Assembly (NCBI GenBank): GCA_963708185.1
Contig: OY970195.1
Location: 672,001-736,000, forward strand
DNA from: Candidatus Peregrinibacteria bacterium
GTDB taxonomy: Bacteria > Patescibacteriota > Gracilibacteria > UBA1369
Reading direction: 5' to 3'
DNA length: 64,000 bases
Below the pieces are notes generated by a model. It did not search any database, had not been told where the DNA came from, and was given only the letters and a program-made list of their open reading frames with translations. Below, piece after piece: positions 2,227 through 43,109 of this stretch. Numbering within the stretch: the stretch's first letter is position 1; each line of letters opens with the position of its first letter. The translations under genes and the position numbers were made by a program.

Positions 2227-2258
2227 GATTCCCTTCGTTTTTTCATTTTTCCATTTCA

Positions 2259-3422
2259 ATGTTTTTCGGCATTTTTTCTTCTCCTACAAGCCAAAAGGCG
2301 CTAAAAAAAACGCAGAAACTGCTCGTTGGATTTTTCGTTGTGGGATTCAGCTTCTTTGGCGGCCAACTGGAGCCGGTTTTTGCCGAATTCAACAGCATGC
2401 TCGCCCCAACGGATTACACGCCTTCAAGCTATATTCCTCCCAATTACGATGCCTTTGACCACGACTATTACCGTCCTCCGGTGTATGATGAGGTTCCCAA
2501 TACGCCTCCCGAAGCCGATTTCACCATCTACAACGACCAAAACGGATTGCAGAGCCAGGCCCGTGGCACCACCTCGACCCGCTTTACTTTCGACGCCAGC
2601 AACTCCAGCGACAACGAAACCGACATCAGCGATCTAGAAGTCCGCTGGGATTTTGAAAACGACGGTGTGCTCGACAGCTATTTTTCGAGGACAAAGACGA
2701 TCGAACATACTTTCAAAACGGCGGGCGTTTATACGGTCAAACTTCAAGTCCTGGATCCTGCCGGCAACATTTCAAGCACCACCCATACCGTAACGGTCGC
2801 CAACAATACCCCCCCGGAGGCGTACTTCGTCGTTGAACCGACCAGCGGAACGGAACAGACCATTTTCCATTTCGACACTTCCCGTTCAAGAGACGACCAA
2901 TACATGCCGTATTCCCTTGTGTACCGTTTTGACTGGAACGGCGACGGAACATGGGATACCAGCTACCAGGACAAGACCGACTGGAATCACCGCTTCAATA
3001 CCTCCGGAACATTCAAAGTCATCATGGAAGCCAAAGATCCGGAAGGTGCAACCGGGCAATATTCAGCCGTTGTGAGCACCGCCCCGAACACTCCGCCGTT
3101 TGCCAATTTCAGCCTGCAAGCCATTCCAAACAGCCAGGGCGTTGGTTATGAATTCAATGCGTCTTCAAGTACCGATGCGGAAACCGCCCACAACAACCTG
3201 CTCTATCGTTGGGATTTCAACTACAACGGGCCAGATGATATCGTGTACGACACCGACTGGAGCAGTTCCGACCGTTACAGCGGATACTACAGCATTCCAG
3301 GAACCAAAGTCATCAAGCTTGAGGTAAAGGATGAAGACGGGGCGATCAGCCGAGCCTATGCCCAGATCAACGTCAGCTGGACCGAAACGATGGCCAAACA
3401 GTTGATGACGGGCTTGAGATAG
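2259..3422 (+). CDS. Secreted PKD-domain protein (three PKD-like repeats)
   Basis: Three repeats of N(T)PPxAxF...F(D/N)xS.S.D...(Y/V)RW/FD(F/W)...G...V.L.V.D..G; N-terminal hydrophobic segment. Confidence 0.8.
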   Translation: MFFGIFSSPTSQKALKKTQKLLVGFFVVGFSFFGGQLEPVFAEFNSMLAPTDYTPSSYIPPNYDAFDHDYYRPPVYDEVPNTPPEADFTIYNDQNGLQSQARGTTSTRFTFDASNSSDNETDISDLEVRWDFENDGVLDSYFSRTKTIEHTFKTAGVYTVKLQVLDPAGNISSTTHTVTVANNTPPEAYFVVEPTSGTEQTIFHFDTSRSRDDQYMPYSLVYRFDWNGDGTWDTSYQDKTDWNHRFNTSGTFKVIMEAKDPEGATGQYSAVVSTAPNTPPFANFSLQAIPNSQGVGYEFNASSSTDAETAHNNLLYRWDFNYNGPDDIVYDTDWSSSDRYSGYYSIPGTKVIKLEVKDEDGAISRAYAQINVSWTETMAKQLMTGLR

Positions 3423-3540
3423 AGATTTTTGACTTTGCTCGACGGATTCACTTTTCATCTCTTGATGGGTTGGTTTTTTTGCAGTTTTATGGTACAATAA
3501 TATGAAATAAAAATTTCTAACAAATTTTAAAAACAAAATT

Positions 3541-5154
3541 ATGAAAAAGTTTTTTCATTTCAAGGTCGCTGCTCCATCAATCGCAGCCCTCGCCGTCGTG
3601 GCGCTCACAACATTTACGGTTTTCGCACAGCCGTCCTCGACTCCTACAGGAGGAAATGTTGATGCACGTTTCGATACTATTGGTGTTGGTGTATTGGGTT
3701 CTGAGAATCTTCTGATTGATTCAAGCGGTTATATTTCTAACCCGGGTACAAACGCAGGAGGTACGGTGGGGTTCAACGATCCAGATGGTGTAACAAGTAC
3801 AACGACATCCTCTACTGCTATAAAGGGAATATCTACAGATGGTGTCGGTGTTGCCGCTAATTCTACAAATGGAAACGCTATTTCTGGGAATTCAACCAAT
3901 GGAATTGGTGTTTCCGGTTCTTCTACCAACAGCAACGGGGTTCAAGGTACAGCCTCAGGCAGTGGTTACGGTGTGATGGGTAGCGGTAGTACTGGAAGTA
4001 TCGGTTATCTCGGTGCTCCACACTATGGCGTTTATGGTTTGGGCGGTGATGTTGGTGTTTGGGGAGGAAGCAATGCCGTAAGTGGTGTTGGCGTAAGTGG
4101 TGTTGGGAGTACTAATGCGATAGCTGGTGTTCAAGGAACAATTAACGTTTCGAATGGATTTGGAATAATCGGACACGCTTCCGCTATCAATAGTACAGCC
4201 ATAAAAGGACAGGTTGATGTTGGTGAAACCGGCAGTAGTGCCGGGTATTTTGCTAACATTCCTTCAAGTAATTCAGTGAGTCTTGGTACTGATACGAATT
4301 CTATCGTTGCTAATGGAAATACATTGGTTAACGGACTGGCGCAATTCCACAGGACTACCGCCTCTCAATGTGACAGCAGAATCAATGGAAGTAATATGAG
4401 TCTGACAAACTGTCCTGCCTCGGATAACGCTTTCCATTTTTTAAGCATGATTGATGCTTTTGGGGGAATCGGCAGTCAAAATTCTGGTGGGACCGACACA
4501 GCTCCACTCGCCGTCAAGGATGACAGTGGTCTGTCTGTTGGAAATGCTGCAGGAACTGTCGGGCTCGATATTGCCGCAGATGGGACGATCTTAAATCCCT
4601 CAACTTATACTAATTTCAGAGGTACTTTTGACAATCCCACGAAAATAGATGACAACCTGGATGTTACGGGATCTACGTCAACCGATTTTTTATCTGCTTC
4701 AGGAGGCGATTTCGGTTCGTATCTGCGCGCACATGGTGATTTTGTTGTCAGTCATATTTACCCGGCAGATTTTGATACTGATACACGTTTTGAAAACGGA
4801 GGTATTATTGTGAGTAACTCTGCCACCGGCGGAGGACCTGACAATATTAGTCTGTCAAAGGATGGACATGCAAAAGCTGTGAAAGGGTTCGGACAGATTT
4901 ATACGAAAAATGCATCATCAACAGTTAATATTGCAGCAAATACGTATTCTTTGGTTGGGAGTATTTCTTGCAACTCTTCAAATGACAGACTTATCAATGC
5001 TTACGTTACGGCGAGTGCAAATGTCTCTGTTGCAGACTGGTATAGCGTGACTCCATATTCGCTTTCACTCTACGCAAGGAACAATGGTTCCACTACTATC
5101 AACGGAGTTCAAGGACATATTATCTGTTGGAATCCTAACGGCAGTACTTGGTAG
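3541..5154 (+). CDS. Secreted Gly/Ser-rich surface or adhesin-like protein
   Basis: Signal peptide, GxGVxGxS-type repeats, C-terminal ICWNPNG; T/A-ending codons more frequent than in neighbouring genes. Confidence 0.7.
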   Translation: MKKFFHFKVAAPSIAALAVVALTTFTVFAQPSSTPTGGNVDARFDTIGVGVLGSENLLIDSSGYISNPGTNAGGTVGFNDPDGVTSTTTSSTAIKGISTDGVGVAANSTNGNAISGNSTNGIGVSGSSTNSNGVQGTASGSGYGVMGSGSTGSIGYLGAPHYGVYGLGGDVGVWGGSNAVSGVGVSGVGSTNAIAGVQGTINVSNGFGIIGHASAINSTAIKGQVDVGETGSSAGYFANIPSSNSVSLGTDTNSIVANGNTLVNGLAQFHRTTASQCDSRINGSNMSLTNCPASDNAFHFLSMIDAFGGIGSQNSGGTDTAPLAVKDDSGLSVGNAAGTVGLDIAADGTILNPSTYTNFRGTFDNPTKIDDNLDVTGSTSTDFLSASGGDFGSYLRAHGDFVVSHIYPADFDTDTRFENGGIIVSNSATGGGPDNISLSKDGHAKAVKGFGQIYTKNASSTVNIAANTYSLVGSISCNSSNDRLINAYVTASANVSVADWYSVTPYSLSLYARNNGSTTINGVQGHIICWNPNGSTW

Positions 5155-17519: not shown

Positions 17520-19592
<2,073 letters not shown>

Positions 19593-40987: not shown

Positions 40988-41509
40988 ATGAAAATCCTGA
41001 AACCAATCCTGACGTTGGCCCTCATGGTGGGTGCTGTGTACCTCCTCTACACGTTCCTGATTTTTCCGCTTTTTTCGCATTACGTGAAGGTGATCCACCT
41101 CGTTGACGCCGACACGCTGCTGGTGAAAGACGGCGACAAGATCATGCAGGTCCAGCTCATCGGAATTGATGCGCCCGAAAAAACCGGTCCGGCACATTCC
41201 CCGCAATGTTTCGATTCCCAGGCGCTTCATCTCACGGCTGAGGACTTTTTCTCCGACGGACAGGACGTGCGTCTGGTCCAGGACAATCTTCTCGGCGACA
41301 CCGACAACTACGGTCGTCACCTGCGTTACGTTTATCTGAAGAACGGCGACTTTCTCAATGAAAAAATGCTGGAGAACGGCCTGGGCATATTGTATACGGA
41401 TCCGAACAAGCCTTACCAGAAACAAAACCAACTGACCAAAGCCCAAGACGACGCACGTTCAAAAAACCTTGGAATCTGGGATCCACAAGGCTGTAACGGG
41501 CACTTCTAG
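40988..41509 (+). CDS. Thermonuclease (SNase) family protein, membrane anchored
   Basis: VDADTL, LIGIDAPE, DNYGRHLRYV, A......GIW. Confidence 0.88.
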   Translation: MKILKPILTLALMVGAVYLLYTFLIFPLFSHYVKVIHLVDADTLLVKDGDKIMQVQLIGIDAPEKTGPAHSPQCFDSQALHLTAEDFFSDGQDVRLVQDNLLGDTDNYGRHLRYVYLKNGDFLNEKMLENGLGILYTDPNKPYQKQNQLTKAQDDARSKNLGIWDPQGCNGHF

Positions 41510-41538
41510 TTTTCATCTTTCCGTCCGAAAAAAGATTC

Positions 41539-41570
41539 AAAAATCCCTGTGCGACTGGAGCCGCACCGGG
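41539..41570 (-). terminator. Intrinsic terminator closing the minus-strand ncRNA unit (may be bidirectional)
   Basis: Minus strand CCCGGTGCGGC-TCCA-GTCGCACAGGG followed by ATTTTT. Confidence 0.65.
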
Positions 41571-41599
41571 TAAATTTTTATTTTTGAATTATATTCAGA

Positions 41600-42714
41600 C
41601 CTCCCCCGTATCTTCATGGAAACTCATGATGCCAACCACAACAAGATGAAATGCTATGAACAATTACATGTGAGTGTCGTTGGACAAACGTTAGATACCT
41701 GTTCTTTTCATGACATCAAAACCCATCACAATAAAGACAAGCACGGGAACAATTCGCTGGGCGCTGTTGTTACCGACCATGAGATTCCGAGAAAATCGAG
41801 GGAGGGAGCTGTCTTGAGGACTGGGGGTCAAAAATAAGTGACCAATGCCCAGTCCGAAGACAGCTCTCTCCCGCTTTTCAACGGTACGTTCTTTCAAGGA
41901 TCATGACTGAAATTTCTTCAGTCCCCCTTAAACTCTACGAGACAAATTTCAAACATCTGAACACCTCGGAAATTCTTAGTTCCCTCAGTAGTCACTTACC
42001 ATATTCCGTTTCCAAAATATGACAGTACCTCTCTCACGTATCGGCACATCACGTCTGACCACAGAACCGAAGTCCTACAGACAAAACAGGAGGCGTCGAC
42101 AAATGAAGTCCAACCTCTTCCCTCTACAGCCTGGTCTTTTAGACCCGCCAAGCGAAAAGGATGAGCACGCCAAGAACCTGGGGGACTCTTGGACGCGGTT
42201 TTACTCTCCATCACGCAAAGTCTAAGGAGGAAGCTGCCAAAGATCCCAAGTATGAAACCCTTTTTTCATCAATACCTAAGGTCTTTGACAGCTTTCTCCC
42301 GAGCTTTTGCCGGAAAGTTGTTTTTTGTTTTTAAAGAACGTTTTATTTTTACTCCCGAGTAGAGGGGTCGGATATCGAACCCAGAAGAAACGATAAAATC
42401 TCTTCCGTGGATAACCATAAGAGTGACCGAAGTCATAATTATGATGTATCCGAGGTGTCTCGGCGTATAAAGTTTGATCCAAGCCGAAGCTCGAAACAAA
42501 ACTTCATGGAGTCGAAACATATCATTCAATCTCTCTCTTAAATCACTTGACCTCCAAGCCCATCAAGCGTTGAAGAAAGGCATCGGGACGAGTTCTGGGA
42601 GAACTGTCCAAATAATCCGATCCTTCAAACCCGGGAGGAATCTGCCTAAGACGCTAGTACTGAAGCATGGTGGGAACTTGCAGTAACCAGGATTTCAGGC
42701 AGGTTTCTCCCGAG
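41600..42714 (-). ncRNA. Putative array of three homologous structured non-coding modules (42352-42714, 41923-42303, 41600-41874)
   Basis: No credible ORF; each module has CGGGAGA + hairpin + CCTCC...GGGRG long closing stem with shared internal motifs; promoter and terminator on the same strand. Confidence 0.6.
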
Positions 42715-42791
42715 ATTGAGGTGCGCAGGCAAATGGTTTTGTACCTTTGCCGTGCGTTTTTCTTGTTGTCAAAAAATCACTGTTTCATTAA

Positions 42792-42821
42792 ATTCTATCA
42801 CATAAACAGAATATGTGTCAA
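42792..42821 (-). promoter_or_regulatory. Near-consensus sigma70 promoter facing the ncRNA array
   Basis: Minus strand TTGACA-18 bp-TAGAAT with an extended -10 TG. Confidence 0.7.
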
Positions 42822-42950
42822 TACTCCCGGGGACTTTTTTTGAAGAGGTAGTTTTGTCCAGAAACTCGGATTGATCTTTTCGGCGGATTCGGGTAAGTTT
42901 TTCACTGCAATTTTGAGCACAAAGTGCGGTTCTAACGCGCAAAAAAACAT

Positions 42951-43025
42951 GCCGGGGTAGCTCAGTGGTAGAGCGAAGGATTGAAAATCCTTGCGTCGAC
43001 AGTTCGATTCTGTCCCTCGGCACCA
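42951..43025 (+). tRNA. tRNA-Phe(GAA)
   Basis: GCCGGGGTAGCTCAGTGGTAGAGCG-AAGGA TT GAA AA TCCTT-...GTTCGATTC...CACCA. Confidence 0.97.
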
Positions 43026-43080
43026 GTACTTGATCATGATAAAGATTTCCAAGATCTTCGTTTCGGAAAGGAAACGACCA

Positions 43081-43109
43081 TTGACATTGGTAAAATAATA
43101 TTGTATATT
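43081..43109 (+). promoter_or_regulatory. Sigma70 promoter of the DEAD-box helicase gene
   Basis: TTGACA-17 bp-TATATT. Confidence 0.6.

Follow-up and report, generated by a model that had tools for sequence, protein, structure and literature searches.

The stretch from 42821 to 41539 on the minus strand of the window (the whole 64,000-nucleotide stretch of DNA that was analysed) forms a separate transcription unit with its own promoter and terminator, and we think it probable that it belongs to a new, lineage-restricted family of modular, highly structured and stable non-coding RNAs that are cut from one precursor. The predicted transcript is about 1.25 kb long and carries three paralogous modules behind one strong promoter. 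The covariation and the shared fold of these modules are genuine, and the family is found in CPR bacteria that public records list under the titles Peribacteria, Peregrinibacteria or Gracilibacteria. An earlier note on this DNA, written from the sequence alone, had described three diverged, structured modules processed from one polycistronic RNA of a family that it did not recognise; all the elements that it listed were found, no more than a few bases away from the positions it gave, and its reading as a whole is partly supported.

The unit and its surroundings are as follows.

42792..42821, minus strand: promoter, TTGACA, 18 nt, TAGAAT, with an extended -10 TG; boxes kept in the 5 same-genus loci aligned
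42715..42791, minus strand: 5' leader with a U-rich/UUGA(C/A)AA motif, read by eye
41539..41566, minus strand: intrinsic terminator with a 7-bp stem, 5 G-C pairs, a 4-nt loop and a U run, from a motif scan
42951..43025, plus strand: tRNA-Phe (GAA), divergent neighbour, given for context and outside the RNA; Rfam and ARAGORN
40988..41509, plus strand: membrane-anchored SNase-family nuclease gene, convergent neighbour, given for context; Pfam SNase 3.3e-18, hydrophobic N-terminus

The promoter is a sigma-70-like site that matches at 11 of 12 positions and is the best of the 5 promoter-like sites at the locus (shuffle mean 2.2 sites), while the stem at 41566-41549 with the T run behind it is the sole terminator-like site there; a motif scan set against shuffles thus recovered both signals that the earlier note had read on this strand. 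Equivalent promoters likewise precede the RNA in other genera, both sides of the terminator stem vary among the aligned same-genus loci, and a motif related to the leader (GUUCUUUAAAA, AUCAUUGAAA) was recognised by eye about 20-25 nt upstream of every module. The start, ends and strand of the RNA in the source organism are predictions from sequence.

Being divergent from tRNA-Phe and convergent with the nuclease gene, the RNA unit reads into neither of them. The tRNA-Phe gene adjoins the RNA at 7 of 8 further family loci and also at loci L038 and L040, and an SNase-family homologue adjoins it in 11 other species genomes and is absent from the fetched flanks of the remaining loci. The nuclease gene was rejected as a partner: it is convergent, its hydrophobic N-terminus is a membrane or signal segment, and it is missing from the flanks fetched for the other loci, so its presence is taken as conserved gene order only. 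The DEAD-box helicase gene that lies past tRNA-Phe was also rejected as a conserved partner, the adjacency being found only in the source genome (G000) and two metagenome loci. In other families the neighbours of the RNA are rmuC and an addA- or uvrD-like gene, in contrast to the tRNA-Phe and SNase genes here. The neighbours differ between families, and adjacency pointed to no conserved partner protein or ligand.

The three modules are paralogous, and in their alignment the mean column identity is 63%. Each opens with CGGGAGA, at 42714, 42303 and 41874 on the minus strand, and the linkers between them are 48 nt long, all of which agrees with the earlier note. Read 5' to 3', every module contains a purine 5' element (YUAGGGAG-like), then the long hairpin P1 and then a pyrimidine central strand (CUCCCUA-like); these are followed by a core of several helices, held by a loop-loop pseudoknot of xCCA with UGGy, and by a 3' element in which the 5' element recurs. 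The parts, all on the minus strand, are these.

42352..42714: module A, from the module alignment; match to covariance model R1 of 49.4 bits
42714-42707: module A 5' element, CUCGGGAG
about 42703-42641: module A hairpin P1
42637-42630: module A central strand, CUCCCGGG
42599-42596: module A L5 loop, CCCA
42562-42559: module A L7 loop, UGGG
42359-42352: module A 3' element, CUCGGGAG
42304..42351: A-rich linker A/B, with GUUCUUUAAAAAC at 42339-42327; from sequence and the same-genus alignment
41923..42303: module B, the best conserved; 14 helices, 106 pairs, R1 match of 177.4 bits
42303-42296: module B 5' element
42293-42232: module B P1
42230-42214: module B central strand and P2 5' strand
42182-42179: module B L5 loop
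42147-42144: module B L7 loop
41939-41923: module B P2 3' strand
41875..41922: linker B/C, from sequence and the same-genus alignment
41600..41874: module C, from the module alignment
41873-41868: module C 5' element
about 41866-41806: module C long hairpin P1, very conserved
41805-41789: module C central strand
41761-41758: module C L5, CCCA
41725-41722: module C L7, UGGG
41608-41600: module C 3' element

The modules are large and contain many invariant unpaired nucleotides. Within the A/B linker UCUUUAAAA is invariant across 5 same-genus loci, and the module C hairpin keeps 94% identity in another genus. The four CUUCGG hairpins of the earlier note were located at 41854, 42067, 42427 and 42484 on the minus strand (the 64-kb window holds 56 copies of the motif on both strands).

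Module B on the minus strand has a folding energy of -146.2 kcal/mol (z -5.27), matched by none of 100 shuffles, as against -91.4 kcal/mol (z -1.88) for the plus strand, which favours the strand that had been chosen. Its long closing stem, also proposed earlier, was recovered both by single-sequence folding and by RNAalifold. Across 19 genomes 94.4% of 1997 cells pair in the module B structure, compared with 38-51% in slid controls; compensatory change is found at 66 of the 106 pairs, 259 cells are changed on both sides (43-63 when slid), and none of 500 shuffles reached any of the five measures. Of the 22 genomes that matched by blastn, this alignment (A3) contains 19; G008, G026 and G036, whose matches were only weak and short, were left out. 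For A-type modules (n=20), MAFFT and RNAalifold gave compensatory changes in P0/P1, helix 5 and helix 7, the only parts that this alignment resolved, the 3' half being too diverged for these programs. The P0-P1 stalk is 86.2% paired in 60 modules (slid controls 34-56%), and 20 of its 21 pairs are changed on both sides; in this alignment (A6) the mis-detected segment L059:2120 was dropped and the hand-located L100 and L103 were added. The L5-L7 pseudoknot pair is C-G in 35 modules, A-U in 9, G-C in 8 and another combination in 1, hence Watson-Crick in 52 of 53. These 53 rows (alignments A7/A8) derive from 65 anchored segments, of which 7 mis-anchored ones were dropped, L066 being re-anchored, to leave 59, and from which 6 C-type rows misaligned by MAFFT were then removed; read by eye, those six all have CCCA, with UGGG or CGGG. 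A regex table gave 48 Watson-Crick pairs among 50 modules tabulated, 19 of its 69 modules lacking the strict L5 pattern. The suspicion that stem sequences differ while pairing is kept is thus borne out by module B, P0-P1 and the pseudoknot alike.

One pyrimidine central strand co-varies with two purine elements, one on its 5' and one on its 3' side. It can pair with the 5' element to form P0, a helix of 7 bp that extends P1, or with the 3' element to form P2, which has at least 12 bp and closes the core; since one strand serves two partners, P0 and P2 are mutually exclusive. Of 72 modules, 42 passed the filters (3' element at least 11/12, module no longer than 420 nt, and removal of three picks judged wrong, L001-2677, L059-2120 and L007-1991), and 38 distinct triples were kept. 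Positions 1-7 of the central strand are paired to the 5' element in 35-38 of these triples and to the 3' element in 36-38, counts that are inflated, the elements having been picked as best complements. At position 7 the three strands change jointly (U-A-U in 31, G-C-G in 4, C-G-C in 2), and locus L064 carries the variant GGAAG/CUUCC/GGAAG for the 5', central and 3' strands.

The earlier note's failure to recognise the family proved well founded. When the 64-kb window was searched with Rfam 15, only three tRNAs reached the gathering score, and ARAGORN found no tmRNA in it. At E<=10 none of the 4227 models gave a meaningful family at 41300-43100: the only matches there were microRNA-precursor and snRNA models lying on long hairpins, with 15-28 bits against cut-offs of 34-117. 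The models include OLE, GOLLD, ROOL, HEARO, raiA, 6S, group I/II introns and the small self-cleaving ribozymes, and the ribozyme and intron families had no match at the locus even at E<=10. Several housekeeping RNAs were rejected as identities, the genome having its copy of each elsewhere: bacterial type A RNase P RNA (RF00010) at C1:185828-186179 with 175.6 bits, tmRNA (RF00023) at C1:1209539-1209952 with 123.6 bits, and 16S rRNA. At the level of titles and abstracts the family was not found in the literature; supplements of motif-discovery papers could list it.

A protein-coding gene or pseudogene was also rejected. The longest ORF at the locus has 86 aa in table 11, as the earlier note's finding of no credible ORF implied; in table 25 a 258-aa frame is open only if 4 TGA codons are read through. 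Pfam gave nothing better than E 0.013 in all frames tried at the locus, and same-genus copies differ by indels of 1 and 2 nt, not multiples of three. A CRISPR or short-repeat array does not fit units of 275-380 nt that are only about 63% alike and adjacent save for 48-nt linkers. Nor does the RNA of a prophage or mobile element fit the single copy in the source genome and the conserved tRNA-Phe/nuclease synteny: 50,697 phage records held no match to the RNA, and none of the viral contigs scanned for the signature pattern had it. The decayed gene or mobile element that the earlier note had named as a check on itself accordingly found no Pfam, phage or viral-contig match.

The homologue search with covariance models, likewise suggested there, was productive: 27 of the 36 genomes of the source family match. 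The source genome carries a single copy of the locus, and the whole locus is present at 77-79% identity, with compensatory changes, in 4 of 4 same-genus genomes. Other genera have one to three full modules, so the earlier note's three paralogous RNAs stand as to paralogy and shared fold, and the number three holds for the source genus only. Across genera the module types keep the same order (A-like, B, C hairpin). Outside the source genus, module C consists of the long hairpin alone, which at L038 is followed by a U tract, and this hairpin can serve as terminator. Elsewhere in the order and class, single small modules occur in a few families. Tandem duplication of modules has occurred repeatedly and independently (L064, L016), at L064 with entire modules duplicated along with the leader. 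Some complete relatives appear to be without the RNA, G008 and G021 having no room for it beside tRNA-Phe, which indicates that it is not universally required. Weak model matches in G197 and G380 are uncertain members. The contigs that carry the locus are often short, or end close to it.

Contigs from RNA libraries of relatives fall on the three module cores, with 93-98% identity. They were placed from RNA runs X1, X3, X4 and X13, nine other RNA runs (shares 0.05-0.13) being left out; such contigs cannot show RNA ends, and a library may contain DNA. The placed contigs are module-sized pieces, and none spans a linker. Read in the RNA sense, the contigs of B and C begin 9-40 nt into the central strand or past it, off the predicted P2 boundary. 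Contig depth is 12-470 in X1, X3 and X4, while in X13 short pieces of 85-90% identity reach about 75,000; these values are unfit for expression ranking. No placed contig lies over the A and B P1 hairpins, the linkers, the leader and promoter or the nuclease CDS, and in X1, X3 and X4 the C hairpin is uncovered as well; processing, reverse-transcription bias, divergence or filtering may account for the uncovered parts, which we do not count as evidence.

In one 240-nt contig from X13, the 3' end of a C-type module, at a point 5 nt beyond the 3' element, is followed directly by the first base of the same module's central strand. In the related genome G003 the same two points are 210 nt apart, and 210 + 30 is the length expected of a k=31 contig, so that the contig fits a closed or head-to-tail 210-nt molecule. 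Template switching of reverse transcriptase or an unseen genomic arrangement could equally yield this junction, which was seen in one contig of one run; contigs from X1, X3 and X4 are without it. A metagenome scan for the C-type module 3' end returned no stretches and is thus silent on a head-to-tail form in DNA. RtcB (PF01139) was found in only 1 of the 36 family genomes (G027) and not in the source genome, which is 99% complete; the 2'-5' ligase family (PF13563) had no match, and the RNA-ligase family (PF09414) gave only a sub-threshold match inside a 690-aa ORF. The search, which covered these three families, turned up no convincing RNA ligase. The contigs of relatives and the head-to-tail contig give hints of the processing into separate RNAs that the earlier note had proposed, and hint at excision of end-paired module RNAs from the precursor.

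Our preferred explanation, excision of stable modules from one precursor, can be put as a sequence of steps. During transcription P0-P1 would form first and hold the central strand; after synthesis of the 3' element the central strand would shift to it and P2 would form, the order of P0 before P2 being what the geometry of the module suggests. Cleavage of the precursor within the A/U-rich linkers and at the foot of P0-P1 would then give stable end-paired module RNAs of roughly 290, 310 and 210 nt, and RNase III and RNase Y, both encoded by the source genome, could make such cuts. We would guess that the module is a self-contained unit whose copy number was raised by tandem duplication, and that it most likely supplies the RNA of a ribonucleoprotein or takes part in an RNA-RNA assembly, this too being a guess only.

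Another explanation keeps the RNA of about 1.25 kb unprocessed, with the modules as domains that fold on each other into a pseudo-trimer within a single chain and with P0/P2 and the loops as interdomain contacts. The presence of just one promoter and one terminator would agree with it, as would the conserved order of module types across genera and the conserved linker motifs; GOLLD, ROOL and OLE, large natural RNAs, are known as multimers, a cryo-EM paper describing them as homo-oligomeric complexes, and the case for cleavage rests on contigs, not on reads. We nevertheless consider a single uncut RNA rather unlikely, since the number of modules differs by lineage from 1 to 3, with or without the hairpin, lone modules in other families imply that one module is a sufficient unit, L064 duplicated whole modules with their leader, and the contigs are module-sized, none crossing a linker and one being head-to-tail inside a module. 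It is also conceivable that the modules are self-processing RNAs that excise and circularise themselves, needing no protein ligase, in bacteria devoid of RtcB, the central strand acting as an internal guide that docks the 5' element (P0) and then the identical 3' element (P2) and so brings the cut ends together. The length of the head-to-tail contig fits a 210-nt circle, the three-strand covariation points to alternate docking, the ligase searches described above are in keeping with it, and the modules are large with many invariant unpaired nucleotides. Yet template switching on an abundant linear RNA would give the same junction, no known ribozyme family matches at E<=10, and the junction comes from one contig of one run and the ligase search from three families only, so that we judge self-made circles to be quite improbable.

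Highly improbable, in our view, is a ribosome-binding mimic or decoy, in which an abundant RNA with one spare purine element per module titrates 30S subunits or mRNAs. The idea draws on the 16S 3' end of the source genome, which reads ...CACCUCCUUUCUA, on the resemblance of the central strands CCUCCUUA or CCUCCCUA to an anti-Shine-Dalgarno and of the flanking AGGGAG or AAGGAG to a Shine-Dalgarno sequence, and on the two purine elements per pyrimidine strand in each module. Mutually pairing purine and pyrimidine runs look like this by default, however, and the elements drift (GGAAG, GGGGG, CGGGAG) along with their internal partner, which the 16S tail would not follow; variants with internal pairing but without 16S complementarity appear equally common, and the large conserved core and the pseudoknot would be left without a role. 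The reading of the locus as non-functional, whether as the remains of a gene or of a mobile element or as a cis-regulatory region serving the tRNA-Phe or nuclease gene, is close to refuted. It could appeal to a position between two genes and beside a tRNA gene, a common integration site, and to the frequent placement on short contigs or contig ends; against this stand the heavy compensatory covariation, the locus's own promoter and terminator, its single copy in the genome, the lack of a match in the phage records and viral contigs and in Pfam for the frames tried, the indels that are not multiples of three, and its divergence from the tRNA and convergence with the nuclease gene.

Like OLE, GOLLD, ROOL, raiA and HEARO, the Peribacteria RNA runs to several hundred nucleotides, has numerous helices and invariant loops backed by covariation, has a narrow phylogenetic range and its own promoter and terminator, and has a function that cannot be deduced from context. 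GOLLD and ROOL often adjoin tRNA genes, with many of their loci in prophage or mobile DNA, and the Peribacteria RNA resembles them in adjoining tRNA-Phe. It differs from these ornate RNAs in matching none of them in Rfam 15, even at E<=10, in being built of tandem paralogous modules with one strand common to two alternative helices, and in being chromosomal and syntenic in a CPR host and not in phage records or viral contigs. Its arrangement recalls rRNA and tRNA operons, in which a strong promoter also drives several structured RNAs per transcript with spacers between them; there is a likeness too in mature RNAs closed by an end-pairing helix, in the long double-stranded stalk near the cut sites and in the RNase III of the genome. 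Unlike in those operons, the products are not rRNA, tRNA, RNase P RNA or tmRNA, the P0-P1 stalk and the P2 closing helix compete for one strand, and processing here is predicted.

Repeated structured units within one transcript are also found in the ToxI arrays of type III antitoxins, which are cut into monomers, and in the CsrB/RsmZ sponges, where copy number likewise varies by lineage. The units here are 200-400 nt long with about 14 helices, as opposed to tens of nucleotides, and unlike ToxI the RNA has no co-transcribed toxin or partner gene, the nuclease gene being convergent and carrying a membrane or signal segment. Riboswitch and attenuator platforms share the use of one strand by two partners, both kept by covariation; in contrast to them, no gene lies 3' of the RNA and the helices flank a structured domain without forming a terminator/antiterminator pair, with the exception that the terminal C hairpin doubles as terminator in some genera. 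Circular RNAs, whether archaeal (BHB/RtcB), intron-derived or viroid-like, likewise show a head-to-tail junction, of which there is one here, and joined ends held by a helix. The BHB/RtcB route differs in that RtcB is absent from 35 of 36 family genomes, and the intron and viroid-like routes in that no intron or small-ribozyme family matches and that these are chromosomal diverged paralogues, not a replicon; circularity here is putative.

New classes of large, intricate bacterial RNA are rare, and each so far has opened a new line of work, such as RNA-only cages and new ribonucleoproteins. CPR genomes are tiny, and for such cells 1.3 kb of DNA that is non-coding yet conserved and headed by a strong promoter represents a considerable outlay. 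With the covariance models R1 and R2 and the signature motif, the RNA can be annotated in Peribacteria and Peregrinibacteria genomes, where it lies at frequent assembly breaks. The RNA has two unusual design features, tandem paralogous modules and one strand that co-varies with two alternative partners, and in combination they give a concrete model, open to experiment, in which RNA matures by strand exchange. Should the head-to-tail junction prove to come from genuine circles formed without RtcB, it would mean a new RNA-processing chemistry in bacteria.

The 1.4-kb region between the SNase-family nuclease gene and tRNA-Phe is without a credible reading frame. Its longest ORF is 86 aa under translation table 11, a 258-aa frame exists under table 25 only if four TGA codons are read through, and the scanned frames, two for each table, have no Pfam match. 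A consensus scan of the minus strand recovered a promoter and a terminator-like hairpin, the only such hairpin of the region, and between them lie three paralogous modules, A, B and C, which align with one another at 63% mean column identity and have their elements in the same order. Four CUUCGG motifs read on the minus strand inside 640 nt. The earlier note had described a gene-free stretch, a minus-strand promoter and terminator, three modules and CUUCGG hairpins, and all of these were borne out. The window genome (1.437 Mb, one contig, 99% complete) holds a single copy of the locus.

Features of the RNA locus and its flanks (window numbering)
40988-41509, plus strand: SNase-family nuclease gene (Pfam SNase)
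41566-41549, minus strand: terminator-like hairpin followed by a U run
41874-41600, minus strand: module C
42303-41923, minus strand: module B
42714-42352, minus strand: module A
42821-42792, minus strand: promoter TTGACA-18-TAGAAT with extended -10 TG
42951-43025, plus strand: tRNA-Phe

The terminator hairpin (41539-41590) may serve both convergent transcripts, since an A run and a T-rich run flank it on opposite sides, and it lies 40 nt past the stop codon of the nuclease gene.

Module B folds at -146.2 kcal/mol on the minus strand (z -5.27, equalled by 0 of 100 shuffles) and at -91.4 kcal/mol on the plus strand (z -1.88). The RNAalifold consensus of 19 orthologous B modules from 19 genomes has 14 helices with 106 pairs, 66 of them with compensatory changes. 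This structure pairs 94.4% of 1997 cells, against 38-51% in slid controls, with 259 cells (controls 43-63) and 66 pairs (controls 23-36) changed on both sides, figures somewhat favourable to it because it was predicted from the alignment in which they were counted. None of 500 shuffles attained any of five measures of the structure. The covariation that the earlier note believed it saw is thus substantiated, and invariant G-U pairs, such as that of columns 153/163 in 19 of 19 sequences, fit an RNA read on the minus strand.

An unusual feature of the modules is one strand with two partners. A purine element (consensus YUAGGGAG) opens each module and recurs, nearly unchanged, at its end; between the two, a pyrimidine central strand (consensus CUCCCUAAGCUU) directly follows P1, the long hairpin. 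With the 5′ element the central strand forms P0, 7 bp that extend P1; with the 3′ element it forms P2, at least 12 bp that close the core (helices 2 and 3 of the B structure). P0-P1 pairs at 86.2% across 60 modules (slid controls 34-56%), with both sides changed in 20 of its 21 pairs. Of 38 distinct triples, 35-38 have central positions 1-7 paired with the 5′ element and 36-38 with the 3′ element, counts that are biased upward because the elements were located as best complements. The joint substitutions are beyond what this bias explains: the three strands change together at position 7 (U-A-U 31, G-C-G 4, C-G-C 2, U-G-U 1) and position 3 (G-C-G 35, A-U-A 2), and whole elements read GGAAG/CUUCC/GGAAG in locus L064, GGGGG/CCCUC/GGGGG in locus L061 and CGGGAG/CUCCCG/CGGGAG in module A of the window. 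P0 and P2 are mutually exclusive on one strand, and therefore the strand either switches or is used in different molecules or at different times. Module B of the window genome has CUCGGGAG as its 5′ element (42303-42296), as does module A, and the other four genomes of the genus (L002-L005) have AUAGGGAG in module B; CUCGGGAG weakens P0 of module B in the window genome and looks like a conversion from module A.

In 20 A-type modules, whose 3′ halves are too diverged for MAFFT, 24 of 35 pairs show compensatory change, located in P0/P1, helix 5 and helix 7. The loops of helices 5 (xCCA) and 7 (UGGy) are complementary. The x-y pair was tabulated over 53 A- and B-type modules, taken from species genomes and from metagenome contigs: it is C-G in 35, A-U in nine, G-C in eight and other in one; each of the two middle pairs is C-G in 52, and the fourth is A-U in 38, G-U in one and unpaired in 14. 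Six C-type rows misplaced by MAFFT were excluded from this count, and by eye have CCCA with UGGG or CGGG. A regular-expression table of 69 modules has both loops in 50, of which 48 are Watson-Crick. All three x-y pair types are found in A- and B-type modules alike and across several genera, so the contact is a pseudoknot maintained by selection.

The covariance-model search of CPR genomes that the earlier note had proposed did find homologues. With blastn the whole three-module locus was found at 77-79% identity in all four other genomes of the genus, and 20 of 35 other family genomes contain parts of it. The covariance model R1, built on the 5′ domain of module B, matches 27 of 36 family genomes, the window genome included. 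Of 151 genomes sampled across the order it matches 20, among them 15 of 22 from the own family, 3 of 16 from a second (every one belonging to a single genus) and 1 of 9 from a third. The second model, R2, covers the 5′ element, the hairpin and the central strand; it matched three of 150 other genomes across the class, two genuine-looking and one weak, and gave one weak match in 150 across the phylum. Beside tRNA-Phe, five R1-negative family genomes showed a miniature module (one), a module start or C-type hairpin reaching the contig end (two) or no space for the RNA (two). An exact-pattern scan of one genome per species returned 20 stretches, 16 in assemblies titled Peribacteria, Peregrinibacteria, Gracilibacteria or Patescibacteria, all previously found, and four in unrelated organisms, lacking a profile match and about as many as expected by chance; a metagenome scan returned 30, 18 of them matched by R1. 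Many draft genomes have the locus on very short contigs (L014, 1583 nt; L015, 2052 nt; L018, 1884 nt; L009, 2285 nt) or at a contig end (L103, L104). It seems to break assemblies, perhaps through its internal paralogous repeats or uneven coverage, and its absence from draft genomes therefore needs cautious reading.

Module number varies: three full modules in the window genus; in most other family genera, one or two and then a terminal element consisting of the long C hairpin only; three and the hairpin in genome G033; and one small module of 230-340 nt in other families. At locus L038 the C hairpin doubles as terminator, because a U tract directly continues it. L064 (2120-2960, minus strand, genome G017) carries two near-identical modules, each with a leader of about 45 nt and spaced about 390 nt, a recent tandem duplication of the entire unit; since two A-type modules of locus L016 also have one P1 sequence in common, duplication is recurrent.

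The RNA is divergent from tRNA-Phe in the window, L038, L040 and seven of eight further family loci, and convergent with the SNase-family gene in 11 other species genomes (protein identity 36-73%). The protein is probably membrane-anchored or exported, because its N-terminus is hydrophobic. Two other families have a single module flanked by rmuC and an addA-like UvrD_C plus PD-(D/E)XK gene (L055:798-1931 and 2281-4125; L058:711-1760 and 2227-3786), and a third has one upstream of a uvrD-like gene (L110 beyond 1900). These neighbours are nucleic-acid enzymes throughout, possibly by coincidence; no partner gene constant across families was found in the compared loci.

Rfam 15 at gathering scores returned only three tRNAs in the whole 64-kb window, and with permissive filters (E<=10) only microRNA-precursor and snRNA models, far under their cut-offs, on the long hairpins; the comparison with Rfam that the earlier note had called for thus yielded no known family at the locus. 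The RNase P RNA, 16S rRNA and tmRNA of the window genome are all at other positions, none of 50,697 phage records matched, and no viral contig had the signature pattern. A search of titles and abstract openings gave no such RNA in Peregrinibacteria, Patescibacteria or CPR. The nearest comparison is with the large orphan 'ornate' RNAs, to which the window RNA adds tandem paralogous modules and a strand with two co-varying partners; it failed each membership test that was run. We are nearly certain that the locus encodes a genuine structured non-coding RNA from a so far undescribed family, and we rate it as categorically new as an RNA class.

Across 13 RNA runs from five studies, 5-17% of sampled words were present. 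Four runs (X1, X3, X4, X13) were aligned as contigs, which cannot prove transcription, ends or strand. Contigs of 192-338 nt from X1, X3 and X4, about 93-98% identical, lie on the module cores.

Core coverage by X1, X3 and X4 contigs
42352/42366 to 42629/42635: module A
41919/41926 to 42190-42220: module B
41601/41605 to 41788/41792: module C

X13 is an activated-sludge RNA library. Over the helix-7 region of module A (42511-42612) it has short contigs (41-60 nt, 85-90% identity) with depths of about 25,000 to 75,000; contig depths are not comparable, and these are at most a hint that A-type modules of relatives may be very abundant there. A 182-nt X13 contig runs from the 3′ half of the C hairpin through the central strand into the beginning of the core.

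We somewhat favour a model in which P0-P1 folds, the strand moves to P2, and the precursor is cut to release the modules; the steps beyond folding are those we infer. That one unprocessed RNA carries the modules as three domains is rather doubtful. Self-circularisation of the modules is quite unlikely, and it is here that a second X13 contig, of 240 nt, bears. It aligns to 41732-41805 with one mismatch, and RNA-upstream of central strand base 1 it has at least the last 30 nt of a C-type module like that of genome G003, ending 5 nt beyond the 3′ element. The two joined points are 210 nt apart in G003, and a k=31 assembly of a 210-nt molecule, closed or joined head to tail, should give a contig of 210 + 30 nt, which is the length seen. 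This fits circles, but it is one contig in one run, and the junction could also be an unseen genomic arrangement or template switching by reverse transcriptase on abundant linear RNA with exactly those ends. RtcB was found in one of 36 family genomes and not in the window genome, PF13563 has no match, and PF09414 (RNA_ligase) has a single sub-threshold match (24 bits; window about 19008-19229, minus strand; G000:C1:691008-691229) inside a 690-aa ORF that may, judging by its size, encode NAD-dependent DNA ligase. A Shine-Dalgarno/anti-Shine-Dalgarno decoy is very improbable, and the chance that the locus is DNA without function is close to negligible.

Genes for RNase III and for two RNase Y-like proteins are present in the window genome. 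The 1.44-Mb genome thus has two proteins with RNase Y N-terminal domains (515 and 524 aa; G000:C1:253081-253644 and C1:1197563-1198123, outside the window).

Under the favoured model of folding, strand movement and cutting, P0-P1 would form first, co-transcriptionally; the central strand would then shift to the 3′ element, with P2 closing the core, and cleavage at the A/U-rich linkers and the base of P0-P1 would release stable, end-paired module RNAs. Tandem duplication would raise the dose of a self-contained unit, and the size, invariant loops and pseudoknot suggest that the RNA binds a protein, a ligand or another RNA.
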